Shown: in pieces, positions 12,233 to 59,409 of the stretch
How the letters are laid out: each line of letters opens with the position of its first letter
How positions within the stretch are numbered: position 1 is the stretch's first letter
DNA from: Planctomycetota bacterium
Lineage (GTDB): Bacteria > Planctomycetota > UBA11346
Assembly (NCBI GenBank): GCA_025055595.1
Contig: JANWWU010000083.1
Span: 200 to 64,199 of the forward strand
Reading direction: 5' to 3'
Length of the DNA: 64,000 nucleotides
The notes under the pieces: generated by a model
Seen by the model: the letters and a program-made list of their open reading frames with translations, nothing else
What the model was told of the DNA's origin: nothing
The model's database searches: none
Position numbers and translations under genes: made by a program

Positions 12233-13542
12233 GGCTGCGGCCAGAGCGCGAGCGCGCGCCGCTGCGCCTCCGCGACAGCCTCTTCGGGGGCGAGGCGGCC
12301 CTGCAGCGCGTCATGATATACTTCGCCGAGCAGGCGGCACAGCGGATCCCACTGCGGGGTGGCGGGGCGCACCGCGGGATCGAAGGCTTCGGCCGCGATC
12401 AGCTGCCGCATGACGGGAAAGAGCCCGGCATAGGGCGCTCCGAGCTCCTCATCAGCGAACAAGGCGGTCAGCGGCACGCCGGCGTTGCCGGCGCGCGCGA
12501 AGCGACGGGCGCCCTGCGGACCGCAGAGGGCGATGAGCGCGCGCCACACCGCTTCCTGCCGCGCCGGCGGCACGCTGGCGATAATGCCGAGGCACCAGGT
12601 GCCGAAGGGCGCGACGCGCCGCACGCCCTCGGCGACCGGCGGCGGCGCGCACAGCACCTGCCCGCGCACCTGGCACTCCGGGCTGAGCAGGCCCTCGCCC
12701 ATCCGCGCGCCCCACTCGTAGGCGATCGCTGCCTGGCCGGCGATGAAGCGCCGCCGGCGCTGGTCCCAGGCGGTGTTCAGGATGTCGGGCGGCGACAGCG
12801 GCACGAGCTCGCAGGCGAAGCGCAGGGCTTCGACGGCGCGCGGCCCGTCCAGCGTCGGGCGGCCCTGGGCATCGAGCAACGGCTGGCCGAAGGCGGCATA
12901 GAAATGCGCCATCGACTGGCCGAGCGCCGAGCCGCGCTGCGCGTTCCAGACGATGCCGTAGATGCCGGCCGTTGGCCGGTGCAGCTGGCGCGCCAGCGCC
13001 AGGAGCTCCTGCGGCGTGCGCGGGGCCGAGCCACCGACCTGCTCGAGGAGATCGCGGCGCAGCCACAGCAGCTCGGCGTGCGGCTGGATCGGCAGGCCGT
13101 AGAGCCGGCCGCGCCAGCGCGCACCGGCGATCGCCGCGGGAATGTAGGCGGCGGGATCGAGGCCGGCGCGCTGGCAGAGCTCGTCGAGCGGCAGCAGGGC
13201 CCCGCGCTCGGCGAGCTCCGCAGTCCACACGACATCGAAGGCGACGAGCTCGACCTGCCCGCTCGGCGCCTGCAGCTCGGCGAGGATGCTCTGGCGGATC
13301 GCATCGTAGCCGGCGCGCTCGAAGAGCGCGCCGAGTCCGAGCGGCGCGAGCAGCTGGGCGGCCTCGCGCTCGACGATCGGCGCGAAGGGATCGCCGACGA
13401 GCAAGGTGCGCACCGGCGCCGGCGCGGCCGCCTGCGCCGACGGCGGCGGACCGGGCCGCATCGCCCACCACCACGATCCGAGCGCGGCGAGCAGCGCCAC
13501 GCAGCCGGCGATAACCCAGAGCGCACGCATGGCACGCTTCAT
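12229..13542 (-). CDS. ABC-type periplasmic solute-binding protein (family 1, sugar-binding-like)
   Basis: The 437-aa protein has a signal peptide (MKRAMRALWVIAGCVALLAALGSWWW) and typical extracellular solute-binding fold features. It is translationally coupled to the hybrid kinase downstream. Confidence 0.8.
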   Translation of the reverse strand: MKRAMRALWVIAGCVALLAALGSWWWAMRPGPPPSAQAAAPAPVRTLLVGDPFAPIVEREAAQLLAPLGLGALFERAGYDAIRQSILAELQAPSGQVELVAFDVVWTAELAERGALLPLDELCQRAGLDPAAYIPAAIAGARWRGRLYGLPIQPHAELLWLRRDLLEQVGGSAPRTPQELLALARQLHRPTAGIYGIVWNAQRGSALGQSMAHFYAAFGQPLLDAQGRPTLDGPRAVEALRFACELVPLSPPDILNTAWDQRRRRFIAGQAAIAYEWGARMGEGLLSPECQVRGQVLCAPPPVAEGVRRVAPFGTWCLGIIASVPPARQEAVWRALIALCGPQGARRFARAGNAGVPLTALFADEELGAPYAGLFPVMRQLIAAEAFDPAVRPATPQWDPLCRLLGEVYHDALQGRLAPEEAVAEAQRRALALWPQP

Positions 13543-13595
13543 ATACTCGTAAGCGGAATTTCGTCAAGCTGAAATGATGGTGCGCAGCAGGCGGT

Positions 13596-13955
13596 TCAGG
13601 CGCGCCAAGGGCGTCGCAGGAGGTCGCACCGCCGCTCCAAGCGGCCGCGGGCATCGTAGAGGAACAGATCGAAGCGGAGGCGATAGCGGTGCAGGCCGTG
13701 CTGCCGCACCAAGGCGCGCGCCGCGCGCTGCAGCCGCGCCAGCTTCGCGGCATCGACCGAGCGTCCGCCCGCGTCGTGGTCTTCACGTCGGCGCACCTCG
13801 ACGACCAGCAGCGTCCGCCAGCGGCTGGCGACGATGTCGATCTCGCCGCCACCGCCGACCCAGTTGCGCGCGCAGATCCGCCAGCCCCGCCAGCGCAGGT
13901 GGCGGACCGCGGCCTCTTCGGCGCGCCGCCCGAGGTCTCGCGGGTCAGCGGCCAT
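13596..13955 (-). CDS. yraN: YraN family (UPF0102) endonuclease-like protein
   Basis: An internal ATG at 13955 within the 231-aa ORF gives a 119-aa product: GRRAEEAAVRHLRWRGWRICARNWVGGGGEIDIVASRWRTLLVVEVRRR..., matching the YraN pattern (GxxGE..A..YL...G..IL.RN.R...GEIDLIA....LVFVEVK.R). The upstream R-rich extension is rejected. Confidence 0.8.
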   Translation of the reverse strand: MAADPRDLGRRAEEAAVRHLRWRGWRICARNWVGGGGEIDIVASRWRTLLVVEVRRREDHDAGGRSVDAAKLARLQRAARALVRQHGLHRYRLRFDLFLYDARGRLERRCDLLRRPWRA

Positions 13956-16119
13956 GCGACGGCTGGCTCTCCTCTGCGGCATCGCCGAGCGAGAAGCGCA
14001 GGCCGCCGGTGATGCCGTCGATGCGCAGCCGCCCCTGCGCGATGTCGAGGCCGACGCCGAGCGGCAAGAAGGTGCCCTCGATCCGCTGGATCTCGCCATC
14101 GCGGAAGCGGGCCTCGACGACGATCGCGCCCTCGCCGCTGATCTGCAGATCGGGGGGGAGGACCAGACCGCTGAGGAAGGCCAACGGCGCATGGTCGATG
14201 ACGCCGCGCAGCTCGCCCTCCTGGCGCTCGCCGCGCAGCGTGCCGGAGAACTGGGCCGAGAAGCCGCCCGGCAGCGGCTGCCCCGCGGCATCGGCGGCGC
14301 GCACCAGCAGCTGCGCGATCTCCAGCTCCTGCATCCGGCCCTCGCTCAAGCGCAGGCCGGCCGCCAGCGCGAAGCGCGGGGTGAGCGCGGCCACCGGCAG
14401 CCACTGCCCGGGAAGGCGCAGCTCGCCGCTCATCAGCTGCCCGTCGAGCGCGATGCGGACGAGGTCGCGCTGCACCTCGATCCGGCCTTGCAGCCGGGTC
14501 GCCAACGCGCGCAGCCAGTCGCGCTGGCGTGTGCGCCAGGCGCCGTCGCGCAGCGTCAGCTCATCGATCGCGATGCTCACGGCGTCGCCGACGCTCAGCG
14601 TGCCGGCGGCCGTCAGTCGTCCGGCGAGCTCGGGCAGCGCGGCCGGCCCGCGCACCAGCGCCAGCAGGCGCTCGACGCGCTCCGCCTCGCCGGCGATCTG
14701 CGTCCGCTGGGCCGTCCAGGTCAGCTGCAGGCGCGCCAAGGGCGGCTGCGCCGCGGACTCGCGTCGCGGCTCGGCGCTGAGCAGTTCTCCGCTCGCCTGC
14801 ACCAGGCCCTCGCCGATCACTGCCGCCACCTGGGCATCGAGCGGACCGATCGACCAGCCGTCGGCGAGCACGCGCAGCTGGGACAAGCGGGCGCTGAGGT
14901 CGCGGCGGCCGGCGGCGAGCGTCAGCGCGCCCTGCACCACCTGCCCGCCGGCGATCGTCACCTCCCGCGGCAGCAGCGGCGCCAGCAGGGTCAGCGGCAC
15001 TTCCTCGGCCAGCACGCGCGGCGGCCGCTCCCCGCCGAGGCGCAGCGCCAGCCGCGCCTGATTCGCGCCGCTGACCGCGATCTCGCCCTGCCGTTCGCCG
15101 ACCGGCCAGCGCAGCTCGAGCTTCGGCAGCAAGCGCGCGATGTCGGCCAGCGGCAGCTTGGCGGGCAACGGCAGGGCCGGCCCTGGCTGCCAGCGCGCGG
15201 CGACCAGCTGCACGCGCGAGCCATCGCGTGCCGCCGTCAGCTCGCCCTCCAGCTCGCCCCAGCGCGCGTCGCGCAGCAGCAGCCGCGTCAGCTGCGCGCG
15301 GCGCGCGTCGGCAGCGAGCGCGGCGCGCAGCTCCCCGCCTTCCCAACGCAGGCAGAGCTCGCCGCGCGCGGTGTCGGAGACGACGACGCGCTCGAGGCGC
15401 GTGCCGGAGGCGTCGATCTCCGCCGGCAGCCACTGGTCGAGCGCACGGTCGAGCGGCGCGATGTAGCCGAGGCCGGCGAGCGCGTCGAGCAGCGCGCGCG
15501 GGGCGATGCGGCCCTCGCTGATCTCCACCGTCGTCGTCACCGGCGCCTCGTCGCCGGCGCGCGCCGTCGTGACCAGCAGACGCAGCGGCTGCCCGGCGAT
15601 GCGCGCCTCCGCCGTGCTGCGCGTCCGCGGCCCGAGGGCCTCGACCCGCACGCGGATCCCGCTCATCGTCAGCCCCCCCGGCAAGGCCAGCTCGGCGTCG
15701 TCGATCTCCACCTGCAGCGGCCTGGGCGCCCGGGTCGGCGGATGCCGGTCCTCGGCAGCGATGATCGCTTCCAGGAAGCGCCGGCGCCGGGCATCGAGGC
15801 CGGCGCGCAGGCCCGCGACGCGCACCGCGAGCACGCGCCGATCGAGGGCATCGAAGCGCACCCAGACCCGCCGCGCCGTCGCCAGCGGCTCCGCGCCGGC
15901 TTCGCCGAGCTCGACGGCCTCGGCCTCGGCCTCCGTCGGTCCGAGCAGGCGGATCCTGCCGAGGCGCAGCTCGCCAGGCATGCCGTACGCCGTCCAGGCG
16001 TGGGCGGCCTCGCGCGCGAGTCCGCCGCCCTGCAGATAGGCGCCGACCCCGAGGACGGCGAGCAGCGGCAGGGCGACGATCACCGCGACGATGACGAGCA
16101 GGACGCGACGGCGGCCCAT
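13945..16119 (-). CDS. Large envelope protein with N-terminal signal anchor, possibly AsmA-family
   Basis: The ATG at 16119 begins MGRRRVLLVIVAVIVALPLLAVLGVGAYLQ, followed by about 700 aa of repetitive low-complexity sequence. Its stop overlaps the yraN start by 11 nt. The family assignment is a guess from architecture only. Confidence 0.5.
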   Translation of the reverse strand: MGRRRVLLVIVAVIVALPLLAVLGVGAYLQGGGLAREAAHAWTAYGMPGELRLGRIRLLGPTEAEAEAVELGEAGAEPLATARRVWVRFDALDRRVLAVRVAGLRAGLDARRRRFLEAIIAAEDRHPPTRAPRPLQVEIDDAELALPGGLTMSGIRVRVEALGPRTRSTAEARIAGQPLRLLVTTARAGDEAPVTTTVEISEGRIAPRALLDALAGLGYIAPLDRALDQWLPAEIDASGTRLERVVVSDTARGELCLRWEGGELRAALAADARRAQLTRLLLRDARWGELEGELTAARDGSRVQLVAARWQPGPALPLPAKLPLADIARLLPKLELRWPVGERQGEIAVSGANQARLALRLGGERPPRVLAEEVPLTLLAPLLPREVTIAGGQVVQGALTLAAGRRDLSARLSQLRVLADGWSIGPLDAQVAAVIGEGLVQASGELLSAEPRRESAAQPPLARLQLTWTAQRTQIAGEAERVERLLALVRGPAALPELAGRLTAAGTLSVGDAVSIAIDELTLRDGAWRTRQRDWLRALATRLQGRIEVQRDLVRIALDGQLMSGELRLPGQWLPVAALTPRFALAAGLRLSEGRMQELEIAQLLVRAADAAGQPLPGGFSAQFSGTLRGERQEGELRGVIDHAPLAFLSGLVLPPDLQISGEGAIVVEARFRDGEIQRIEGTFLPLGVGLDIAQGRLRIDGITGGLRFSLGDAAEESQPSHGR

Positions 16120-16210
16120 GACGCCCAGGGTGTGCGGCCCGCGCCCCGCGCAATGCCGCGGACGGCCGACGAGCGGCGCGCACGCCGGGCGAGGCGCAAG
16201 AGCGGCCGCT

Positions 16211-17347
16211 TCACTCGCTGCTGCCGTGCAGGCCGATGCCGGCCAGCCACAGGCGCAGGCTGCGGCGGCCGTGATAGATGACGATCTGCACCTCGCGCAC
16301 CTGATGGAGGTCGGCGACGCGCGCACGGTGCGCCCAGCCGCTGGCCTGGGTCTTGAAGTCCGCCGCCGTCAGATCGAACGACAGCGGCACGAACTCCTGC
16401 GCGGCGCCGCCCGGCGGCACCGGCAGCGCGCGGCTCTCGTGGTAGGTCCACTGCGCCCCGGTCTTCAGCGCGAGCGCGATCCGGATCTCGCGATCGCTGG
16501 CGTTCGCCACCAGCAGGCCGAAGGCGCGCCGCCCCGTCAGCTGCAGGGGGCGCCGCAGGACGAGCGCGGCCTTGTCGAGCGCCGGCTTGTCCGGCTGCGG
16601 CTCGACATCGACCTGCAGCACGCGCCGCGGACCTTCCGGCGTCAGCAGCGTGATCGTCTCGATGCGCGCCGGGGCCGACCACTGCGGGTGATCGGCCACC
16701 CAGGGGAAGCGCTCATAGCCCTCGTCGACCGGCGTCGCGCTCGCCGCCGCCACCGGGCGGCCCTCGCGCAGGGTGGCCTCGGGATCCAGCCCCAGGCCGC
16801 GCAGCTGCTCGGCCCAGGCGGCGCGCGCCGCCTCGAGCTCGGCGAGGCGCGCCAGCAGCTCGGGATCCTCGCCGCCAGCGTTGCGATAGGCGATGTAGAG
16901 CGGCAGGGCGACCTCCGGGCCCTCGAGCTCGTCGACGACGCGGGCATGCAGGCCGCGGACAGCGAGCGGGCAGTCCGGGAACGCGACCGCGCGGTTCAGC
17001 GCCGCGCGCGCCTGCTCGTGGTGGCCGTGGGCGCGGCACCAGTGCGCGAGGTCGATCAGGCCCTGCAGGTCGCCGGGCGCGACCTGCGCCACCCGCGCCG
17101 CCAGCCCATATTCGACGCGGGCGATGCGCGCGCGCGGCAGCCGCAGGCGGCCGCTGCCGGTGTCGACCGTGACCCATTCGGCATCCGACTGTTCGCTGAC
17201 CACCGTGCCGCGGAAGCGCTGGGCGTTGTCGAGGATGATCAGGTCGCGGTCGCTCGCCGCCTCGCCGGCGTGCAGCGCGACCGCTGCGGCCAGCGCAAGC
17301 TGGCCCCAGAGCAACAAGCTGCGAGAGTTCGGAGCGCTGCAACGCAT
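16211..17347 (-). CDS. Hypothetical secreted protein
   Basis: The 378-aa ORF has a signal-peptide-like N-terminus (LLLWGQLALAAAVALHAGEAA). The opposite-strand ORF 16091..17362 looks antisense-like. It is divergent from the act operon. Confidence 0.5.
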   Translation of the reverse strand: MRCSAPNSRSLLLWGQLALAAAVALHAGEAASDRDLIILDNAQRFRGTVVSEQSDAEWVTVDTGSGRLRLPRARIARVEYGLAARVAQVAPGDLQGLIDLAHWCRAHGHHEQARAALNRAVAFPDCPLAVRGLHARVVDELEGPEVALPLYIAYRNAGGEDPELLARLAELEAARAAWAEQLRGLGLDPEATLREGRPVAAASATPVDEGYERFPWVADHPQWSAPARIETITLLTPEGPRRVLQVDVEPQPDKPALDKAALVLRRPLQLTGRRAFGLLVANASDREIRIALALKTGAQWTYHESRALPVPPGGAAQEFVPLSFDLTAADFKTQASGWAHRARVADLHQVREVQIVIYHGRRSLRLWLAGIGLHGSSE

Positions 17348-17464
17348 CGTCGTCAGTGGTGATACGCGCTCGCCGCGGCGGCGTTGCCGAGTCGCGCTTG
17401 GTGGAAAGTCTCTTCTGCCTGCCTTGTCGACATCGCCTTGCTGGTAGGCTTAGGAACGCCTCGC

Positions 17465-18382
17465 ATGGTGTCCGGCCCTCCTTCCCCTTCCGCGGCCTCG
17501 CCATCGCCGCTGTCGTGGCTCGCGCGCTGGTGGCCGTTGATCGTGCTCGCCGGCGTGCTCGCGGTAGGGGCCTGGCAGTGGTGGTGGAACGCCTTCCACG
17601 ACCGAGGCTATGCTCCCGAGCAACCGATCGCCTTCAGCCACCGCCTGCATGCCGGCGAACTCAAGCTCGACTGCCGCTACTGCCACTTCAACGCCGAACG
17701 CGGCAAGCACGCCGGGATCCCGCCGATGTCGGTGTGCATGGGCTGCCACGCGGTGGTCGCCAGCGACCGGCCGCAGATCCAGCGCCTCGCCGAGATCGCG
17801 CAGCAGGGCAGCTACACGGCTGCCGACGGCACCGTGCACGAGGGCGGCGTCGTCCACTGGCGGCGGGTCCACCGCCTGCCGGATCATGTCTACTTCGATC
17901 ACCGCGCCCATGTCGCAGCCGGCGTCGCCTGCCAGACCTGCCATGGACCGGTCGAGGAGATGACGGTGCTGCGGCAGTTCGCCGACCTGACGATGCAGTG
18001 GTGCCTCGACTGCCACCGCGGCACGCGCTATGTCGGCGGCCCCGGAACGGACCCCAACGACCCGACGACCTGGCGCGTCGGCGTCGCCGACTACGAGGCG
18101 CTGCGCGCGCGCGAGCGCCGCGATCCGATCGTCGTCTTCCACGAGCGGCGCCTGCGCGGCAGCGCCGCCGGCGCTCACGGGCACGGCGAGGCGCCGGCGC
18201 CCGACGCGGCCGCCGCCGAGGAGCCGGCGGCGGCCCCCGATCCTCGGCTCGCCGCCTTTCTCGCCGCCCATCCCGCCTTCGCCGCCAAGGTACGCGAGCT
18301 GCCAGCGTGGCGCGCCGCCGCGCTGCCCGACTCCCATCGCCTGATGAACGCCGCCACCGATTGCAGCACCTGCCATCAATGA
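17465..18382 (+). CDS. actA: Alternative Complex III pentaheme cytochrome c subunit ActA
   Basis: An ATG with an AGGAA RBS precedes an N-terminal TM (WWPLIVLAGVLAVGAWQWWW). There are five CxxCH motifs: CRYCH, CMGCH, CQTCH, CLDCH and CSTCH. Confidence 0.9.
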   Translation: MVSGPPSPSAASPSPLSWLARWWPLIVLAGVLAVGAWQWWWNAFHDRGYAPEQPIAFSHRLHAGELKLDCRYCHFNAERGKHAGIPPMSVCMGCHAVVASDRPQIQRLAEIAQQGSYTAADGTVHEGGVVHWRRVHRLPDHVYFDHRAHVAAGVACQTCHGPVEEMTVLRQFADLTMQWCLDCHRGTRYVGGPGTDPNDPTTWRVGVADYEALRARERRDPIVVFHERRLRGSAAGAHGHGEAPAPDAAAAEEPAAAPDPRLAAFLAAHPAFAAKVRELPAWRAAALPDSHRLMNAATDCSTCHQ

Positions 18383-53320: not shown

Positions 53321-53479
53321 ATGAGCATGCATGGGTCGTTCGCCAGCAAGGGCGGCATCGCGATGAAGCGCAGCGTCTTCACGCGCCAGGAGCGCATCGC
53401 TCGCCTGCAGAGCAAGGGGCAGTGGGAGCGCGGCAAGCACTCGATCTTCCATCTGCCGAAAGTCCGTACCGACATCTGA
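53321..53479 (+). CDS. Small basic hypothetical protein (52 aa)
   Basis: I translated this by hand: MSMHGSFASKGGIAMKRSVFTRQERIARLQSKGQWERGKHSIFHLPKVRTDI. It has a weak RBS and is not in the ORF track (under 60 aa). Confidence 0.25.
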   Translation: MSMHGSFASKGGIAMKRSVFTRQERIARLQSKGQWERGKHSIFHLPKVRTDI

Positions 53480-53489
53480 GGAGCTGCCG

Positions 53490-53663
53490 ATGCGCCGCCT
53501 CGCCGTCGTCCTCCCGCTCCTGCCCGTCCTGCTGCTCGCCGCCGCCGCCTACAGCTGCGGCAGCAACCGCGCCCAGGGCAGCTGCCCGCGCCAGGCCCAT
53601 CAGCAGGCCGCTGGCGAAGCGCAGCGCGCCCACGAGCGCAATCTGCCGCCGCCGGGTCGCTGA
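53490..53663 (+). CDS. Small secreted peptide (57 aa)
   Basis: A strong GAGGAG RBS lies 6 nt upstream. The sequence is MRRLAVVLPLLPVLLLAAAAYSCGSNRAQGSCPRQAHQQAAGEAQRAHERNLPPPGR, a signal peptide followed by two Cys. Confidence 0.35.
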   Translation: MRRLAVVLPLLPVLLLAAAAYSCGSNRAQGSCPRQAHQQAAGEAQRAHERNLPPPGR

Positions 53664-53664
53664 G

Positions 53665-53964
53665 ATGGACGCGCTCCTCCGTTACATCGCGCTGACGGAG
53701 GAGATCCGCCGCCTCGAAGCGGAACGCGAGGCCTTGCGCGCGCACGCCGTGCGCCAGCTCAAGCAGGCCGGAGGCCGCCTCGACGACGGGCAGATCCGGG
53801 CGGTCTATGTCAGCAAGCCGGTCTATCGCTTCACGCCCGTGGTCGAGGAGATCCGCCTGCAGCTCGCCAAGCGCCAGCGGCGCGAGATCGAGCGCGGCCT
53901 CGCCGAGCGCTGCCACGACACCGAGGTCGTGCACATCGAGCGCGCGGGCGAGACGGGGCGCTGA
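53665..53964 (+). CDS. Hypothetical protein (99 aa, coiled-coil-like)
   Basis: It begins MDALLRYIALTEEIRRLEAEREALRAHAVRQLKQAGG... and is in frame within ORF 53422..53964. Confidence 0.4.
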   Translation: MDALLRYIALTEEIRRLEAEREALRAHAVRQLKQAGGRLDDGQIRAVYVSKPVYRFTPVVEEIRLQLAKRQRREIERGLAERCHDTEVVHIERAGETGR

Positions 53965-54004: not shown

Positions 54005-54499
54005 ATGCAGATCGCCAAGGACACCGTCGCCCGCATCCATTACCGCGTCAGCTCGCTCGACGGGCAGTGCATCGACGAGAGCGCTCCCGGCCGGCCGCTG
54101 TCGTTCCTCTGCGGAGCGGGGCAGATCATCGTCGGCCTGGAGGAGGCCCTGGTCGGCAAGCAGGCCGGCGACCGGGTGGAGGTCGAGGTGCCGCCCGAGC
54201 GCGCCTACGGGCTGCGCGATCCCGACCTCGACCTGGCGGTGCCGATCCAGGCCTTCCCGCCGGAGCTGCGCGGCCGCCTGCGCGCCGGGATGCAGTTCTC
54301 CGCGCCGCATCCGCGTCGCCAGCAGGAGATGGTCGTGTTCACCATCCACGGCCGGCGCGGCGACGAGATCCTGATCAGCGGCAATCATCCGCTGGTCGGC
54401 ATGGCGCTGCGTTTCGAGGTCACGGTCGAGAGCGTGCGCGCGGCGACCGCCGAGGAGCTGGCGCACGGCCATCCGCACGACGAGGACTGCGCTCACTGA
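54005..54499 (+). CDS. slyD: FKBP-type peptidyl-prolyl cis-trans isomerase SlyD with His-rich metal-binding tail
   Basis: The ATG at 54005 gives a 164-aa product beginning MQIAKDTVARIHYRVSSLDGQCIDES.. with an FKBP domain and IF domain. The C-terminus is HGHPHDEDCAH. Confidence 0.9.
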   Translation: MQIAKDTVARIHYRVSSLDGQCIDESAPGRPLSFLCGAGQIIVGLEEALVGKQAGDRVEVEVPPERAYGLRDPDLDLAVPIQAFPPELRGRLRAGMQFSAPHPRRQQEMVVFTIHGRRGDEILISGNHPLVGMALRFEVTVESVRAATAEELAHGHPHDEDCAH

Positions 54500-54780
54500 G
54501 GCCGCTGCAGGCGCGCGGCGAGCGTCCGCTCGATCAGCGCCGCGATGCCGAGGCTGCCGGCGCTGTGCTCGGCCAGGCCCTGGACGAACAGCGCCCGCCA
54601 CTGGTCGCCGGCGCCGTCGCCGCCGAACAGCTCCTCCTCCTCGTCGGCGCGCTCGGCCAGCGGCTGCAGCAAGCGCTGCAAGAATTGCGCCTCGAAGGCG
54701 CGCGCCGCCTGCCGCAGCCGCTGCTGACGATCGCCCTGCAGCGCGAGGCGTCCGGCATCGCTGATCGCGAGGTCCGGCAT
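54493..54780 (-). CDS. flgJ: Rod-binding protein (FlgJ N-terminal-domain-like, no muramidase domain)
   Basis: The 95-aa protein has AARAFEAQFLQRLLQPL...DQWRALFVQGLAEHSAGSLGIAA, matching the Rod_binding pattern. It lies immediately downstream of flgI. Confidence 0.7.
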   Translation of the reverse strand: MPDLAISDAGRLALQGDRQQRLRQAARAFEAQFLQRLLQPLAERADEEEELFGGDGAGDQWRALFVQGLAEHSAGSLGIAALIERTLAARLQRPQ

Positions 54781-54781
54781 C

Positions 54782-55912
54782 TCACATCACCTCGAGGTCG
54801 GCGTGCAGGGCGCCGGCGCGGTGGATCGCCTCGAAGATCGCGACGAGGTCGCGCGGCCGCGCGCCGATCGCATTGAGCGCGTTGGCGATCTGCTCGACGG
54901 TGACGCCCTCGACGAGGTTGAGCGTCCCCGGCACCGCCGTCGGCTTGACGCCGGGCGGCGGCTGGTCGCTGCGCAGGCGGGTGACCGGATCGGTCCAGTC
55001 TTGACCCTGCGGCTTGCCGCTGGCGTCGTTCGGCTTGAGCGTCGGCTGGATGCGCAGCGACAGGCCGCCGTGGCTGACCGCGACCGGGCCGATCGTCACC
55101 TGGGCGCCGACGACGACGGTGCCGGTCCGCGCGTTGATCACTACCCGCGCCCGCGTGTCGGGCTGCACGCGCAGCTCCTCGAGGCGCGCGATCGCCTCGA
55201 CGATGTCCTGCGAGCTCGGCGGCGCGAGGAAGCGCAGGACGATCGAGCGCGCGTCCTCGGCGACCACGCGCTCGCGGCCGAAGGCCTCGGCGAGCGCCTC
55301 GCTGACCCGCGCCGCGGTCGTGAAGTCGGGCTGGCGCAGGACGAGGCGCAGGCGGTCGCCGCGGACCAGGCTGGCCGGCACCTCGCGCTCGACGATCGCC
55401 TCGATGATCGCGACGGTTTCGATGTTGCGGTGATCGGTGCCGACCGGGCCGGCGTTGACCGGGGTCGCGGGGCCGTAGCCGCCGACCGATACCGGCCCCT
55501 GGGCGACGGCGTAGATCTTGCCGTCCCAGGCATCGAGCGGGGTCTGCAGCAGGATGCCGCCGCGCAGGCTGCTGGCGTCGCCGATCGCCGAGACCTGGGC
55601 GTGCACGCGCGTCCCCGGCTTGGCGAAGGCCGGGATGTCGGCGGTCAGCGCGACCAGCGCGACATTGCGCGAGTCGAGGTCGCTCTCGGCCAGCGCCTGG
55701 TGCTTGCGCGCCAGCACCTGGCGCAGCAGGCGGCGCGTCGCCGGGCTCTTGTCGCCGGTGCCGCTGAGGCCGACGACGATGCCGACGCCGTTGAGCTGGT
55801 TGTCGCGCACACCGTCGATCGTGCAGAGATCCTTGAGCCGCACGCTGCCGTCGGCCTCGCCGGACAGCAGCGCCGCGCCGCCGCAGAGCAGGAAGGCGAG
55901 CAGGGCGCGCAT
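54782..55912 (-). CDS. flgI: Flagellar P-ring protein
   Basis: The ATG at 55912 gives 376 aa with a signal peptide. The block VRLKDLCTIDGVRDNQLNGVGIVVGLSGTGD is the FlgI signature. Confidence 0.95.
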   Translation of the reverse strand: MRALLAFLLCGGAALLSGEADGSVRLKDLCTIDGVRDNQLNGVGIVVGLSGTGDKSPATRRLLRQVLARKHQALAESDLDSRNVALVALTADIPAFAKPGTRVHAQVSAIGDASSLRGGILLQTPLDAWDGKIYAVAQGPVSVGGYGPATPVNAGPVGTDHRNIETVAIIEAIVEREVPASLVRGDRLRLVLRQPDFTTAARVSEALAEAFGRERVVAEDARSIVLRFLAPPSSQDIVEAIARLEELRVQPDTRARVVINARTGTVVVGAQVTIGPVAVSHGGLSLRIQPTLKPNDASGKPQGQDWTDPVTRLRSDQPPPGVKPTAVPGTLNLVEGVTVEQIANALNAIGARPRDLVAIFEAIHRAGALHADLEVM

Positions 55913-55914
55913 GG

Positions 55915-56520
55915 CTAGAACGGCCAGAGCCAGTCGAGGGCGCGGCCGAGCCAGCCGCGCTCCTGGGAGCGGGTCAGCGGTCCTTCGCCGACGATCGACA
56001 CCTGCAGGTCGAAGAGCTTCTCCGAGAGCACGGTGTTGTCGCTGCGGATATCGCTCGGGCGGACGATGCCGGCGATCTGGATCGTCTTGCGGTCGTCGTT
56101 GACGACGACCTCGCGCGCGCCGCGGACGACCAGGGACCCGTTGTCGAGGACGTCGACGACCTGCACCGCGATCGTCGTCCGCACGCGGTGCGAGAGGTCG
56201 TACTTGCCCTCGCCTTCGAAGGAGTTGCGCGAGTTCGCGCTGAGCCCGGGCAGGGCGCCGATGCCGGCGCCGCTGGCCGCCGGCGGGGCGTTGGTGCCGG
56301 TCAGGTAGTCGACGCCGGCGCGCATCGTGCTCGAGCGCTCGGCGCCGGTCTTCTGGTTCTCGCTGACCGAGGTCGTCTCGCTGATCACGACCGTCAGCAG
56401 GTCGCCGCGGCGGCGCGCCGTCGCATCGGCGTAGAGATTGCCGTCGGCCAGGGTCTCGGCCCGCCACAGGCTCTCGGCGGCGAGGACGGCGCAGCAGGCG
56501 AGGAGGAGGAAGGCGCGCAT
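55915..56520 (-). CDS. flgH: Flagellar L-ring lipoprotein
   Basis: The ATG at 56520 gives 201 aa with a lipoprotein signal (LLLACCAVLAA). FlgH blocks are GDLLTVVISETTS and VVRGAREVVVNDDRKTIQIAGIVRPSDI. Confidence 0.92.
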   Translation of the reverse strand: MRAFLLLACCAVLAAESLWRAETLADGNLYADATARRRGDLLTVVISETTSVSENQKTGAERSSTMRAGVDYLTGTNAPPAASGAGIGALPGLSANSRNSFEGEGKYDLSHRVRTTIAVQVVDVLDNGSLVVRGAREVVVNDDRKTIQIAGIVRPSDIRSDNTVLSEKLFDLQVSIVGEGPLTRSQERGWLGRALDWLWPF

Positions 56521-56558
56521 GGCGATCTCGCTGATGACGGTTGACGCAAGCGGCATGC

Positions 56559-57197
56559 CTAGGGCTTCGGCGGATGGACGACGGTCCAGGCCAGGCGATC
56601 GGCGGCGTAGCGGCAGAAATCGCGCGGCGTGCTCAGCACCGAGCGCCAGCCGTTGATCGGCGCCCCGCGCTCGCCCTCGCTCGCCGACCACCAGGCGCGG
56701 ATGTCGGCCTGCACATCTTCGCGCCGGCCCTCGAGCTGGGCCTGCGCGCTCCACAGCACCGCCCCGTCGTGGCAGGACACCAGATGCAGGGCGGCGCCGA
56801 GGCTGACCGGCGGGAAGCTGTCGAAATGCTCGACGCGGCCGATGACGACGGCATCGCAGCCCGTCGCGTCGCGCACCGCAAGCAGGACATCGATCGGCAC
56901 GCTGCCCTGGCCGAGGTCGGGCACCGGCAGGGCGGTGCTGGGCGGCACGCGGATCACCTCGTGGCGGCCGAGCGCGCGCAGGCTGGCGGCGAAGGCCGGC
57001 GAGAGCTCGGCGGCGCCCTTGCCGACGCCCTCGGCGAGCGCGAAGGGCAGGACGACGACGCGCAGCGGCTCCCCGGCCGCGGGATCGGCGTGCCAGGTGA
57101 CCGACGGCGGCGGCTCGCCGAGGCTGCGCCATGGCAGCCAGCTGCAGCCGGCCAAGAGCAGGGCGCCGAGCGCCAGGACGGCGCGGCGCGCGTTCAT
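56559..57197 (-). CDS. Lipoprotein with LpoB/CsgG/FlgO-P-like features
   Basis: The ATG at 57197 gives 212 aa with the lipobox LLAGC. The core LRVVVLPFALAEGVGKG...VIRVP...GCDAVVIGRVEHF resembles the VAVLPF-type TolB-N-like fold lipoproteins. It lies 38 nt upstream of flgH. Confidence 0.65.
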   Translation of the reverse strand: MNARRAVLALGALLLAGCSWLPWRSLGEPPPSVTWHADPAAGEPLRVVVLPFALAEGVGKGAAELSPAFAASLRALGRHEVIRVPPSTALPVPDLGQGSVPIDVLLAVRDATGCDAVVIGRVEHFDSFPPVSLGAALHLVSCHDGAVLWSAQAQLEGRREDVQADIRAWWSASEGERGAPINGWRSVLSTPRDFCRYAADRLAWTVVHPPKP

Positions 57198-57871
57198 CGC
57201 TTGCCCTCGGGGCGCGCCGGGGCCGCCGGTGGCTCGAGCCGGCGCGCCGCCTCGCGCGCCTCTTCCTGGAGCTCGAGCAGGCGCGTCGTCTGCCCGGGGC
57301 TCAGCCGCAGCACCGCCGCCGCCAGACGGAAATGCTCGCGCTCGGCGCGCAGGCGGGCGAGCTCGCTGGCCGCCAGCTGCTGCATCAGGTCCTCGGCCCT
57401 GGCCTGGGCCTCGGCCAGCGCCTGCTGCGCGGTCGTCAGCGCCTCGCGGGTGTAGGAGAGATCGCCGACCTGCTCGCGCAGCTCCGTGCCCTGGGCCTGC
57501 GCGCGCTCGAGCTCCGCCCTGAGCTCGGCGATGCGCCGATCGCGCGCGGCCAGCGCCGCCTCGGCCTCGGCCAGGCGCTGCTCGAGCTGGCGCAGCTGCT
57601 CGAGCGGGGTGGAGCCGGGCGCGCTGCGCCCGATGACGCGCAGCAGGCTGCCGGCGCGGTAGGCGCCGCGGCCGTGCGCACGCTGCGCGCGCTCGAGCTC
57701 GGCGATGCGCTGCTCGAGCTGCGCGAGGTGCCGCTCGATCGTCTCCGCCGCCGCCCGCCGCTCGGCCGCCGCCTCGTCCTCGCCGTAGACCCAGCGATCG
57801 GGAACGGCGGCAGCGCGGCTCGTCGCGCAGCCGCACAGCAGCACGCAGGCGGCGAGCCCGGCCCACCTCAT
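57194..57871 (-). CDS. Coiled-coil lipoprotein (225 aa), paralog of the upstream gene
   Basis: The ATG at 57871 overlaps the upstream gene's stop. It has the lipobox LLCGC and a long Ala/Glu/Arg/Gln/Leu heptad-rich region. The C-terminal motif QQLAASELARLRAEREHFRLAAAVLRL is shared with the 447-aa protein. Confidence 0.65.
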   Translation of the reverse strand: MRWAGLAACVLLCGCATSRAAAVPDRWVYGEDEAAAERRAAAETIERHLAQLEQRIAELERAQRAHGRGAYRAGSLLRVIGRSAPGSTPLEQLRQLEQRLAEAEAALAARDRRIAELRAELERAQAQGTELREQVGDLSYTREALTTAQQALAEAQARAEDLMQQLAASELARLRAEREHFRLAAAVLRLSPGQTTRLLELQEEAREAARRLEPPAAPARPEGKR

Positions 57872-59211
57872 GGCCGGGCCTCCGTGCGCTCGTCCTGCCG
57901 GGCCGCGAGCGCCGCCAGGCTGGCGCGCAGTCGCTCCTGCAGGGCCTTGACCTCGGGCGCCGCCGCCGGCAAGCGCAGGACGCGCGCTGCCAGGTCGTAG
58001 AGCGCGCGCTCGGCTTCCAGGCGCGCCAGCTCGTTGGCCGCCAGCTGCTGCTGCAGGGACGCCAGCTGGGCCTCGGCGGCACGGACGCGCTGCGCCGCCT
58101 CTTCCGCGCTCGCCAGCCGCGCCAACGCCTCGGCGCGCTGCTGCTCGGCCTCCTGCAGCCGGCGCCGGGCCTGCGCCAGCTCCTCGCGCAGCGTGCTCGT
58201 CAGGGCCTCCGCCTGCCGCGCCTGCTCCTGGGCCAGCGCGCGCTCCGCCTGCAGGCGCTCCAGCCGCTCGAGCACGCCCTCGCTGCGCGTCGGGTCGCGG
58301 GTCAGCAGGGCGGCGACGGCGTTGGCGCGGCCGAGCTCCCGCCGCTCGAGCTCGGCGAGCCGCGCCGCCAGCTGCTCGCGCGCCTCGCGCTCGGCGGTCA
58401 GCTGGCGCTCGGCGTTGCGCGCCAGCTCCTGACGCTCCCGCTCGGCCTGGGAGAGGCGCCGCCCCGCTTCCTGCAGCGCGGTCGTCAAGCGTTCGACTTC
58501 CAGCCGCAGGCGGTCGCGCTCCTCCTCGGTCTGCCGCATCCGCTCCTGCGCTGCCTGGCGCTCGCTGGCCACCGCCAGCGCCGTCAGGTTGCTCGCCGCG
58601 GCCTGCGCCTGCGCCAGGGCCGCAGCATGCAGGCGCTCGCGCTCGGCGAGCGCCGCGCGCTGCCGCTCCTCGGCCGCGGCCAGCTGCTGCGCGCATTCGG
58701 CGCGCAGGCGGGCGAGCTCGGCGTCGTGGCGGGCGACGGCCTCGGCGAGCAGGCGCCGGTACTGCTCGCGCAGGACGAGCGCGGCGCGCCCGCTCTCGGC
58801 GTCCTCGGGCGCGGCGGAGCGCACCGGCAGCAGGTCGAGATCGGTCAGCTCGCGCACGCGGTCGCCCGGCTGCGGCGCCTCCAGCGGATCGGTCAGCGCC
58901 AGCACGCGCGCGATCGCCCGGCCCTCGCCGGCCACTTCCGTCACCTGGGCCATGCCCTTGATCCGCTGGCCGTCGGCGCTGAGGATCCGCAGCGGCGCTC
59001 CGGGGGTCGCGCCGGCGAGCTCGAGCTCGAGCAGGGGCCGGCCCTCTGCGCCCTGGGCGACGGTCCGCACCGTGCCGGTGGCCGCAGCCGGGGCGCTCTC
59101 CTGCTTCGCCGCGCCGGCGGCGGCCGGCTCGCTGGCGGGACGCGGGGCGCTGCAGGCGTTGCACCACGCGACAGCGGTGAGGACGATCGGAACGAGGCGG
59201 CGGGCGCGCAT
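57868..59211 (-). CDS. Coiled-coil lipoprotein (447 aa) with N-terminal beta-rich domain
   Basis: The ATG at 59211 is the real C-terminal part of the spurious 1989-aa ORF. It has a signal/lipobox VAWCNAC and a beta-rich domain of about 110 aa (…GTVRTVAQG…PGDRVRE), then a coiled coil of about 320 aa. The C-terminal motif QQLAANELARLEAERALYDLAARVLRL is paralogous to the downstream gene. Confidence 0.65.
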   Translation of the reverse strand: MRARRLVPIVLTAVAWCNACSAPRPASEPAAAGAAKQESAPAAATGTVRTVAQGAEGRPLLELELAGATPGAPLRILSADGQRIKGMAQVTEVAGEGRAIARVLALTDPLEAPQPGDRVRELTDLDLLPVRSAAPEDAESGRAALVLREQYRRLLAEAVARHDAELARLRAECAQQLAAAEERQRAALAERERLHAAALAQAQAAASNLTALAVASERQAAQERMRQTEEERDRLRLEVERLTTALQEAGRRLSQAERERQELARNAERQLTAEREAREQLAARLAELERRELGRANAVAALLTRDPTRSEGVLERLERLQAERALAQEQARQAEALTSTLREELAQARRRLQEAEQQRAEALARLASAEEAAQRVRAAEAQLASLQQQLAANELARLEAERALYDLAARVLRLPAAAPEVKALQERLRASLAALAARQDERTEARP

Positions 59212-59264
59212 GGCAGCTGACGGCTTGAAAGCACGCGGCGTGCCAGCGCTCAGAACGCTGCCCC

Positions 59265-59292
59265 TTGACCGGCAGGGGCGTCGTGATACAAG
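59265..59292 (+). promoter_or_regulatory. Candidate sigma70-type promoter for rpsB-tsf
   Basis: TTGACC (59265-70), a 16-nt spacer, and an extended -10 TG-n-TACAAG (59284-92) lie about 118 nt upstream of the rpsB ATG. Confidence 0.3.
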
Positions 59293-59409
59293 CCGCTCTC
59301 TCGTCATCCGTACGCCGGCTCCGCTCAGCGGCGGCGCGCCGACCGGCGGCGGCCACCCCCGCGCGCTGCCATCCCCTGCGCCCGTGCAGAGGGCCGGAAG
59401 GGAGCCACC

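Follow-up and report, generated by a model that had tools for sequence, protein, structure and literature searches.

The 212-aa lipoprotein C, encoded in the 64,000-nucleotide stretch of DNA analysed here (the window), is probably a new outer-membrane accessory of the flagellum. In Planctomycetota and Verrucomicrobiota its relatives almost always lie in flagellar clusters, and C is therefore probably an undescribed part of the flagellar motor. Whether the six-gene block that encodes it represents two joined units, ordinary flgH-flgI-flgJ(N) genes plus a flagellar accessory module of three lipoproteins (A-B-C) with C as its core, we regard as an evenly balanced question. Much of the diversity of flagellar motors in torque, sheath formation, and outer-membrane protection is explained by accessory rings around the L/P rings, which have so far been characterised almost exclusively in Gammaproteobacteria and Campylobacterota. 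The C family is unannotated, near-constant in Verrucomicrobiota-type flagellar operons and recurrent in the three other branches sampled, which makes C a concrete candidate gene in the flagellar motor, with a fold of ring-forming lipoproteins.

Organization of the six-gene block

All six genes lie on the minus strand, in the order A (57868-59211, a 447-aa lipoprotein recognised by its ORF and lipobox Cys), B (57194-57871, a 225-aa coiled-coil lipoprotein), C (56559-57197, lipobox LAGC followed by a PelC/GNA1162/LpoB-type alpha/beta core), flgH (55915-56520, the 201-aa flagellar L-ring lipoprotein), flgI (54782-55912, the 376-aa flagellar P-ring protein), and a gene for a 95-aa single-domain FlgJ-like rod-binding protein (54493-54780). 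The block is real: its coordinates and lengths agree with those first described in a sequence-only reading, and NCBI gene calls on GCA_033583855.1 contig JAVQYS010000001.1 give identical lengths for all six genes. The tight spacing described there was also confirmed, with 4-nt ATGA overlaps at the A/B and B/C junctions and gaps of 38 nt between C and flgH, 2 nt between flgH and flgI, and 1 nt between flgI and flgJ. A terminator scan found no terminator-like site within the block, a generic sigma-70 promoter scan found nothing, and an Rfam search of the region gave nothing credible. Upstream of the block is the divergent rpsB-tsf pair and downstream the convergent slyD; as previously stated, no rod, hook, or export genes flank it, and the called genes and large ORFs that were checked in the window include no further flagellar gene. 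A few ORFs at 21-34 kb appear, by eye only, to be of respiratory type.

Both flgH and flgI are intact, and their identities as L-ring and P-ring genes rest on full-model Pfam matches. FlgH matched PF02107 (5.1e-49, 166.6 bits, cut-off 27, model positions 4-172 of 172), and 13 of its 15 NCBIfam matches are FlgH/L-ring models; its N-terminus, MRAFLLLAC/C, read directly from the sequence, is a short lipoprotein signal with an L-L-A-C box and Cys. FlgI matched PF02119 (1.2e-99, 333.9 bits, cut-off 25.3, model positions 1-343 of 343) and NF003676 (322.9 bits, cut-off 300). The 95-aa protein occupies the canonical place of FlgJ, directly after flgI. It had been described as a FlgJ-N-like protein without muramidase; no peptidoglycan hydrolase domain was found in it with Pfam or NCBIfam, in keeping with a single-domain type, and its match to the rod-binding domain PF10135 is borderline (25.0 bits, cut-off 25.1), with weak matches to NCBIfam FlgJ models (4e-4 and 1.5e-3) in the N-terminal region only.

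Sigma-54-type promoter element upstream of A

A sigma-54-type promoter element lies on the minus strand at 59230-59245, some 20 nt before the start codon of A (window sequence TGGCACGCCGCGTGCT). It reads TGGCAC-N6-TGCT, with GG and GC ten bases apart, which is the canonical spacing (consensus used: TGGCAC-N5-TTGCW), and it is the sole exact match in the 64-kb window. Across eight orthologous upstream regions, GGCA...GC is invariant within the conserved block CTGGCACGG.GGGTGCTTTCA, and the distance from the element to the ATG is near constant (~17-22 nt). The element is also kept at locus L007, where the upstream neighbour is gyrB. Judged by its sequence, it would function as a sigma-54-type promoter. 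For Planctomycetia and Opitutia, sigma-54 promoters have been predicted at motility genes in a sigma-54 regulon survey (PMC12316311).

Lipoproteins A and B

All three lipoproteins begin with a signal sequence that has Cys at the lipobox position, a residue that is nearly invariant across the A and C homologues and invariant in six aligned B sequences; Pfam and NCBIfam contained no family covering any of the three, and returned coiled-coil noise only. A consists of an N-terminal six-stranded beta-barrel (~residues 45-121), predicted at pLDDT >90 in the structure model, and a long helical/coiled-coil region, with a conserved central motif and a C-terminal ELARLEAER..LAARVLRL motif. Thirteen homologues share this architecture. 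The structural neighbours of the barrel are generic only (ATPase N-terminal domains, FlgT, membrane-fusion proteins, and MreC), and no function can therefore be read from it.

B carries a conserved GRGAYRxGSLLRV motif and a C-terminal QLAASELxRLRAER motif. In tblastn searches against relatives it aligns with the C-terminal half of A, and the C-terminal motifs of A and B are 58% identical over 43 aa (E 4e-7). The two had been taken for tandem paralogues sharing this motif; the common motif holds, and by sequence similarity B is paralogous to the C-terminal half of A, so that the paralogy is partial.

Fold and sequence relations of lipoprotein C

In a fold search the top structural match of C was PelC, followed by GNA1162, CT253, CsgG, FlgT-N, TolB-N, and LpoB. 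C has the PelC fold, an alpha/beta sandwich lipoprotein whose core starts ~15 residues past the lipobox Cys, and differs from PelC in an extra conserved C-terminal segment of ~50 residues forming three helices and in its flagellar context. Searched against PDB sequences, the C family profile matched PelC (5t10) at E 1.4e-3 (profile A1) and 3.7e-5 (profile A4); since GNA1162 matched nearly as well (9.7e-5), these scores place C in the superfamily and not in the PelC family itself. W149 of C, in an LWSA motif, is nearly invariant and pairs in the alignment with the VVWSA Trp of P. phytofirmans PelC; it may be the counterpart of the membrane-facing Trp-149 of P. aeruginosa PelC. Some family members have weak Pfam matches to LpoB, CsgG, and GNA1162, all below the gathering thresholds; those to LpoB (PF13036) occur in 10 of 46 members, with a best E of 1.8e-4, and the window protein has none. 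FlgO, FlgP (LPP20), and FlgT gave no Pfam match at E<=1 for C or the 46 family members, and their PDB sequences gave none at E<=10 to the family profile. The sequence-only assignment of C to a FlgO/FlgP, CsgG, and LpoB type of fold is thus borne out by structure at the superfamily level and, among profiles, by the sub-threshold LpoB and CsgG matches, with no profile counterpart for FlgO, FlgP, or FlgT. Two observations speak against a flagellar ring role: proteins that form no ring, LpoB and TolB-N among them, can have the PelC/LpoB fold too, and PelC, the best structural match, is a component of polysaccharide export, not of flagella.

Distant relatives of C lie in flagellar clusters

An exhaustive profile search returned 1105 representatives of the C family with full-length matches at E<=1e-3 (~1,100 clusters, counted at 50% identity). 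Those members that are named belong to Verrucomicrobiota and Ca. Brocadiaceae and are annotated as hypothetical proteins, with one JGI record reading universal stress UspA family protein. All four distant branches sampled sit inside flagellar clusters, and the flagellar link of the lipoproteins, originally proposed from local gene order, is strongly supported by this new evidence. In the Verrucomicrobiota-type branch, the order fliC-fliD-[C]-flgM-fliS was found in 76 of 80 metagenome loci, a census that rests on a narrower alignment and covers only part of that branch. The other contexts are fliOPQR-flhB-flhA-flhG-fliA-..-[B-like]-[C]-..-fliK-flgD-flgE in P0076 (19 contigs), flhG-fliA-78aa-[B-like]-[C] in P0208, and [B-like]-[C]-..-fliK-flgD-flgE in the Brocadiaceae member P0083. 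A sigma-28 promoter upstream of fliD was seen at 5 of 26 loci of the Verrucomicrobiota-type branch, above the 3% background and not general.

A B-like coiled-coil lipoprotein, of similar size to B and with a similar C-terminal motif, immediately precedes C in three of the four distant branches (P0076, P0208, and P0083), and in two of these three cases its stop overlaps the start of C. Comparison of B with the distant B-like group by hhalign gave a probability of 83% (E 8e-6); at a probability of only 83%, and with coiled-coil sequence prone to spurious matches, their homology is uncertain. Based on ~20 loci of close relatives at which flgH and flgI are absent, the trio had at first seemed unrelated to flagella, a view that was dropped after the exhaustive profile search and the distant members.

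The A-B-C operon in close relatives

Within the subfamily of the window, A-B-C forms a self-contained operon behind the conserved sigma-54-type promoter, usually beside rpsB-tsf. The only genomes in which flgH-flgI-flgJ follow C are that of the window, an identical assembly, and a single clade with 77% identity; in all other members with sequence downstream of C, A-B-C ends at C and unrelated genes come next (Ppnp/UPF0114, sucDC, fur/mdh, or a porin-like gene). Gene calling on the relatives' loci covered the high-GC ones (GC 74%) and left out L013, L015, and L016. The six-gene neighbourhood is conserved in part, A-B-C with rpsB-tsf being mostly kept and flgH-flgI-flgJ being confined to the closest relatives. 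The description of A, B, and C as lipoproteins dedicated to the flgH-flgI genes that they precede does not hold beyond these genomes, and local synteny therefore does not show dedication to the L/P rings. Occurrence mostly away from flg genes in relatives, which would count against a flagellar role, was found in part, namely within this subfamily, and the trio may therefore have acquired another role there.

It is possible, though unlikely, that A-B-C in this subfamily is a general cell-envelope module, such as a PelC-like funnel serving a polymer or porin, or a coiled-coil lipoprotein tether or spacer of the outer membrane, and that it came to lie before flgH-flgI through a recent rearrangement of no functional significance. 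Such a module would fit the self-contained trio with its own promoter, the stable and non-flagellar neighbour rpsB-tsf, the restriction of flgH-flgI-flgJ to the window genome and the 77%-identical clade, the closeness of C to the PelC fold, and a freshwater clade in which a 430-aa porin-like gene and a 202-aa gene follow the trio on the same strand. However, the four distant C-family branches, three of them with a B-like partner, are all flagellar in context, and no pel, polysaccharide-synthesis, or export genes lie nearby. Moreover, two independent contexts in the subfamily have flagellar neighbours, above the expectation for scattered genes; at locus L003 the neighbours of A-B-C are csrA-fliW and a fliA-like sigma factor.

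Proposed role of the module

We take flgH-flgI-flgJ(N) to be L-ring, P-ring, and rod-cap genes of the ordinary kind, and propose that A-B-C may be a lineage-specific, expanded form of a flagellar accessory module of Planctomycetota and Verrucomicrobiota. C would be lipid-anchored at the periplasmic face of the outer membrane and, by analogy with PelC, CsgG, FlgT-N, and Vibrio FlgO/FlgP, would oligomerise into a ring or disk beside the L ring. The coiled-coil lipoprotein B may attach to C as a spacer or strut, and A, a B copy of the window's subfamily with an added beta-barrel, would play the same role as B. The module would be transcribed from the sigma-54-type promoter, and in the window genome the transcript probably reads through into flgH-flgI-flgJ, given the 38-nt gap and the lack of a terminator in the scan. 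Fold and gene context suggest that the ring could be built around the L/P rings and contact them.

More specifically, we tentatively suggest, with somewhat less than even confidence, that the motor of Planctomycetota and Verrucomicrobiota has an undescribed outer-membrane ring of its own, made of PelC-fold C and, in Planctomycetota, also of B. If so, a fold known from a polysaccharide-export ring would have been recruited independently into the flagellum, and the window clade would have duplicated and extended the module (A), placed it under a sigma-54 promoter, and joined it transcriptionally to the L/P-ring genes. C may therewith serve as a case study of how a ring fold of polysaccharide export and envelope lipoproteins could be put to new use in the flagellum. 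Annotation should treat C-family genes as flagellum-associated.

Instead of a lasting structure, C with B might be a transient assembly factor, for example one that helps the L ring or the hook/filament to breach the outer membrane, which we consider improbable. In its favour, late and chaperone genes surround the Verrucomicrobiota-type C, with fliD on one side and flgM-fliS on the other, and the Vibrio H-ring lipoproteins are needed for outer-membrane penetration or sheath formation. However, the closest structural relatives of C are stable oligomeric rings, and the known flagellar outer-membrane lipoprotein rings are permanent structures. The late-gene setting (fliD, flgM, and fliS) suits an assembly factor and a structural ring equally.

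About equally improbable is an LpoB-like role, in which C would extend from the outer membrane to the peptidoglycan and, at the site of rod passage, recruit or activate a cell-wall enzyme, which would offset the missing muramidase domain of the single-domain FlgJ. Yet both structure and profile place PelC and GNA1162 clearly nearer to C than LpoB. In none of the contexts is a peptidoglycan hydrolase or penicillin-binding protein conserved beside C, and the long disordered linker that an LpoB would be expected to have is missing from C, whose core follows closely on the lipobox Cys.

Comparison with known systems

Returning to the proposed ring of C, its nearest structural model is PelC, the dodecameric outer-membrane lipoprotein ring of the Pel exopolysaccharide exporter PelBC, by analogy with which a C ring may be envisaged. 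PelC is encoded in the pelABCDEFG operon with the TPR-porin PelB, whereas no pel genes occur in any C neighbourhood examined and no PelB-like TPR-porin lies nearby. The flexible Gly-x-Asp-Gly loop of PelC contacts PelB through its Asp; in the profile alignment the corresponding loop of C is three residues shorter, reads F-D-S-F-P-P, and has no conserved Asp. The GNA1162/DUF799, LpoB, and CsgG lipoproteins belong to the same fold superfamily as C but, unlike the C family, have no flagellar context.

Lipoprotein rings around the L ring are known from Vibrio (FlgO/FlgP/FlgT) and Helicobacter (FapH/FlgP), and FapH guards outer-membrane integrity during rotation (PMC11756786). FapH, and FlgP of sheathed Helicobacter species, are lipoproteins encoded with flagellar genes that form rings near the outer membrane, as proposed for C, although the searches run here found the families of the Campylobacterota FlgP basal disk and Helicobacter FapH to be unrelated to C. 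The FapH and FlgP rings are supported by experiment, whereas the A-B-C module is known from genes and models. FlgO/FlgP and FlgT of the Vibrio H ring likewise have no profile relationship to C, differ from it in taxa and gene neighbourhood, and have no coiled-coil lipoprotein partner, which C has in B; FlgO was not among the fold-search matches of C, for which the presence of the FlgO entry 9YDS in the library was not established. Like the C family, the Vibrio H-ring genes are linked to flagellar genes, and their products ring the L/P rings.

Organization and putative promoter of the flgH-flgI block

The region 54493-59211 consists of six closely packed genes, all on the minus strand: three lipoprotein genes, here named A (57868-59211, 447 aa), B (57194-57871, 225 aa) and C (56559-57197, 212 aa), followed by flgH (55915-56520, 201 aa) and flgI (54782-55912, 376 aa), which match the respective Pfam models over their full length (5e-49 and 1e-99), and a 95-aa gene (54493-54780) with a borderline rod-binding (FlgJ N-terminal) domain and, according to Pfam and NCBIfam scans, no hydrolase part. 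The same databases revealed no family for A, B and C beyond coiled-coil noise. A/B and B/C overlap by 4 nt each (ATGA), the gaps between C and flgH, flgH and flgI, and flgI and the 95-aa gene are 38, 2 and 1 nt, respectively, and no terminator-like site was detected within the block; transcription could read through into flgH. Divergent rpsB-tsf lies upstream and convergent slyD downstream. The six lengths are identical in the NCBI gene calls of a 352-kb contig that includes the window and belongs to a Planctomycetota MAG (GCA_033583855.1), and the ORFs, lengths, spacing and flanking genes described by the sequence-only reading were all confirmed. No other flagellar genes were found among the called genes and large ORFs checked in the 64-kb window (including cytochrome bd, glnE, histidine kinase, metK, argS and leuA-like genes; for a few respiratory-type ORFs at 21-34 kb the assessment was visual only). 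The flgJ-like gene (-) and slyD (+) converge so closely that their stop codons overlap by 7 nt (54493-54499), with no space left for separate terminators. Between lpxA and slyD, small conserved ORFs encode a helical protein of 99 aa and another protein of 57 aa (53535-53964, +), and a 50-aa ORF immediately precedes them (about 53330-53480); these ORFs have no family match and have equivalents in the 77%-identical relative (L017).

Upstream regions of A have one conserved block in common, a sigma-54-type element (CTGGCACGG.GGGTGCTTTCA; window 59230-59245, minus strand) with an invariant GGCA...GC at canonical sigma-54 spacing. Its exact pattern matches once in the 64-kb window, which is not significant alone, and the evidential weight is its conservation: orthologous sites are present in seven relatives' loci (L001, L003, L004, L007, L010, L017 and L022), including L007 although the upstream neighbor there is gyrB. 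Because the element lies about 17-22 nt before the ATG of A, it implies a very short leader without a Shine-Dalgarno sequence. Expression of A-B-C from such a promoter is consistent with a survey in which motility genes of Planctomycetia and Opitutia were predicted to have sigma-54 promoters (PMC12316311). The rpsB-proximal half of the intergenic region (59246-59409) also contains conserved blocks (e.g., CCTCTGCACGGG and GCCGGTCGGCGCG), which recur in L003, L010, L017 and L022, have no Rfam match and may represent an rpsB leader or regulatory RNA.

Structure and homology of the three lipoproteins

C has a canonical lipobox (LAGC), and its AlphaFold2 model, based on an alignment of 25 homologues, is confident (pLDDT 89.9): residues about 33-156 form an alpha/beta sandwich core, and residues 160-207 add three conserved helices. 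PelC is the top structural match, ahead of GNA1162, CT253, CsgG, FlgT-N, TolB-N and LpoB, and Foldseek ranks them likewise (PelC at 1.7e-7). When the C-family profile was compared with all PDB sequences, only PelC (1.4e-3 with the close alignment and 3.7e-5 with the broad alignment) and GNA1162 (9.7e-5) were significant. Pfam scans of 46 members gave sub-threshold matches only (LpoB in 10, CsgG in 6, GNA1162-like in 5 and TolB_N in 2) and none to FlgO, FlgP or FlgT. Considering these profile matches and the sub-threshold level of the Pfam matches, C is the founder of a new family within the PelC/GNA1162/LpoB superfamily, and the fold class guessed from sequence alone was thus correct. The possibility that C is PelC proper was rejected: although the Trp of its LWSA motif aligns with a PelC Trp, its surroundings lack pel genes, and the loop whose Asp contacts PelB in PelC (PMC12141448) is shorter and not conserved in C.

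A has 13 detectable homologues of identical layout: lipobox Cys, beta-barrel, long helical region, a conserved motif in the centre (GRA..AALLTRDP.R.EGVLERL) and a strongly conserved one at the C terminus (ELARLEAERAL.DLAARVLRL). The barrel (residues 45-121) is modelled at pLDDT above 90, and the structures nearest to it are six-stranded barrels of a generic kind, from ATPase N-terminal domains, FlgT, membrane-fusion proteins and MreC. Since B has the C-terminal motif in common with A (58% identity over 43 aa, E 4e-7) and in relatives also aligns with A residues about 280-430, sequence comparison identifies B as paralogous to the C-terminal half of A.

Genomic contexts of the A-B-C trio and the wider C family

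Close homologues of C are rare: a word-indexed search of 5.8 billion proteins recovered only 37, and C is present in 10 of 185,579 species-representative genomes, nine of which carry a Planctomycetota or planctomycete label, whereas the tenth reads just 'MAG: bacterium'. Across about 20 loci of this window subfamily (the close relatives of A-B-C), the gene order is kept wherever upstream sequence is present, and the trio is usually divergent from rpsB-tsf. Downstream genes differ: convergent Ppnp and UPF0114 in L007, L022 and L023, sucDC in L008, fur and mdh in L009, a same-strand porin-like gene and a 202-aa gene in L001, L004 and L012, and convergent HDOD-csrA-fliW in L003, with a fliA-like sigma factor a few kb beyond. 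Because the order is kept while the downstream genes differ, the trio is an autonomous unit in this subfamily. Its designation as dedicated to flgH-flgI was overstated, as just three cases have flgH-flgI-flgJ behind C: the window genome, the identical assembly GCA_026415635.1 and the nearest clade (77% identity).

In the freshwater clade (L001 10814-12820, L004 9029-11022 and L012 9948-11947), the same-strand porin-like protein has 430-435 aa and a weak Porin_O_P match; the protein of about 202 aa beyond it has no family in L001 and L004, and the gene caller gave a 160-aa ORF in L012. The L003 region (11536-17756; GCA_031412315.1) additionally encodes a 733-aa protein without annotation and an 80-aa protein similar to the C-terminal domain of FlhB.

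Taken alone, the synteny of close relatives would argue against a flagellar accessory structure. However, the contexts of distant C-family members reverse this conclusion. An exhaustive HMMER search, in which the C profile was run against 1.84 billion cluster representatives, yielded 1105 proteins at E<=1e-3, of which 516 reach E<=1e-10; nearly all have 200-260 aa and align over their full length. The best 150 comprise the window subfamily and several further ones, members with a named source belong to Verrucomicrobiota, Limisphaerales and Ca. Brocadiaceae, and the lipobox Cys, RRV.VLP, DAV, LWSA and C-terminal SP..F..Y are kept throughout. In every distant branch that could be placed on a contig, a flagellar cluster surrounds the C-like gene: fliC x3-fliD-[C]-flgM-like-fliS in P0203 (Verrucomicrobiota); fliOPQR-flhB-flhA-flhG-78aa-fliA-78aa-68aa-[142-aa lipoprotein]-[C]-HEAT protein ... 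fliK-flgD-flgE in P0076 (19 contigs); flhG-96aa-fliA-78aa-[194-aa lipoprotein]-[C] in P0208; and [192-aa lipoprotein]-[C] ... fliK-flgD-flgE in P0083 (Brocadiaceae). Metagenome contigs scanned with a narrower alignment provided 80 loci covering part of the Verrucomicrobiota-type branch, 76 of which have fliD directly upstream and/or flgM-fliS directly downstream; the four exceptions are fragments of less than 1.5 kb (L040, L082 and L086) and a 3.4-kb locus (L056). In L051, flgE, flgH and flgI lie about 6 kb upstream of the C-like gene. The flagellar connection claimed by the sequence-only reading therefore holds through these distant branches, and a non-flagellar envelope role of A-B-C in the window subfamily, as the close-relative synteny might suggest, appears unlikely.

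A sigma-28-type promoter (TCAA-N16-GCCGATA) just upstream of fliD (L025 6134-6255) would assign the C-like gene to a late flagellar operon; it is present in 5 of 26 Verrucomicrobiota-type loci and is not general. Two distant subfamilies share a small CxCG-motif protein of 68 or 78 aa (..LDVTCTCGRRFDVLLEEE, ..IEVRCSCGEVTVVELEYD; L027 7370-7576 and L031 2210-2446), which has no family match on record and is encoded between fliA and the gene of the B-like lipoprotein.

Evolution and possible function of the module

The lipoproteins encoded upstream of C in P0076, P0208 and P0083 combine a lipobox and a helical body with a C-terminal motif (e.g., ALLASEIQKATFERRLLEQRLVEL and LTTAQIRGLEAEKRWLELSLSL) resembling that of A and B (B counterpart QLAASELARLRAEREHFRLAAAVLRL), and the B-like stop overlaps the C-like start in two of the three. 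An hhalign comparison of the B alignment with these proteins (probability 83%, E 8e-6) is only suggestive of homology because coiled coils align easily. Given such pairs in distant flagellar clusters, a B-C pair within flagellar operons looks ancestral in Planctomycetota. In the window subfamily the pair would have moved out of these operons, with A arising by duplication of B and addition of a barrel, and in the window's clade the L/P-ring genes would have been placed directly behind the module.

We propose that C is most likely an outer-membrane-anchored part of the flagellar basal body in Planctomycetota, Verrucomicrobiota and Chlamydiota (PVC), where it could oligomerise to form a ring or disk close to the L ring, to which B, and here A as well, would attach as coiled-coil struts. 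The accessory ring around the L/P rings envisaged from sequence alone is partly supported, namely in its fold class and flagellar link, whereas the dedication to flgH-flgI was overstated and the ring architecture is a prediction. Accessory rings made of lipoproteins are already known, and possible functional analogues are the Vibrio H ring, in which lipidated FlgO and FlgP form C58 rings around a C26 FlgT ring, and the Helicobacter FlgP disk and FapH ring. A role of C as a transient assembly factor seems improbable, and LpoB-like recruitment of a cell-wall enzyme, which the hydrolase-less FlgJ would favor, slightly more so. The C family has no name in any source and falls under no curated model, and literature searches brought up no description; a ring made from this unrelated family and its coiled-coil partners would be a new lineage-specific variant of the accessory rings. 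Encoded directly 3' of the C-like gene in a flagellar cluster (L027 8664-9794), a HEAT-repeat protein of 376 aa whose N-terminus is signal-like may be a further accessory component.
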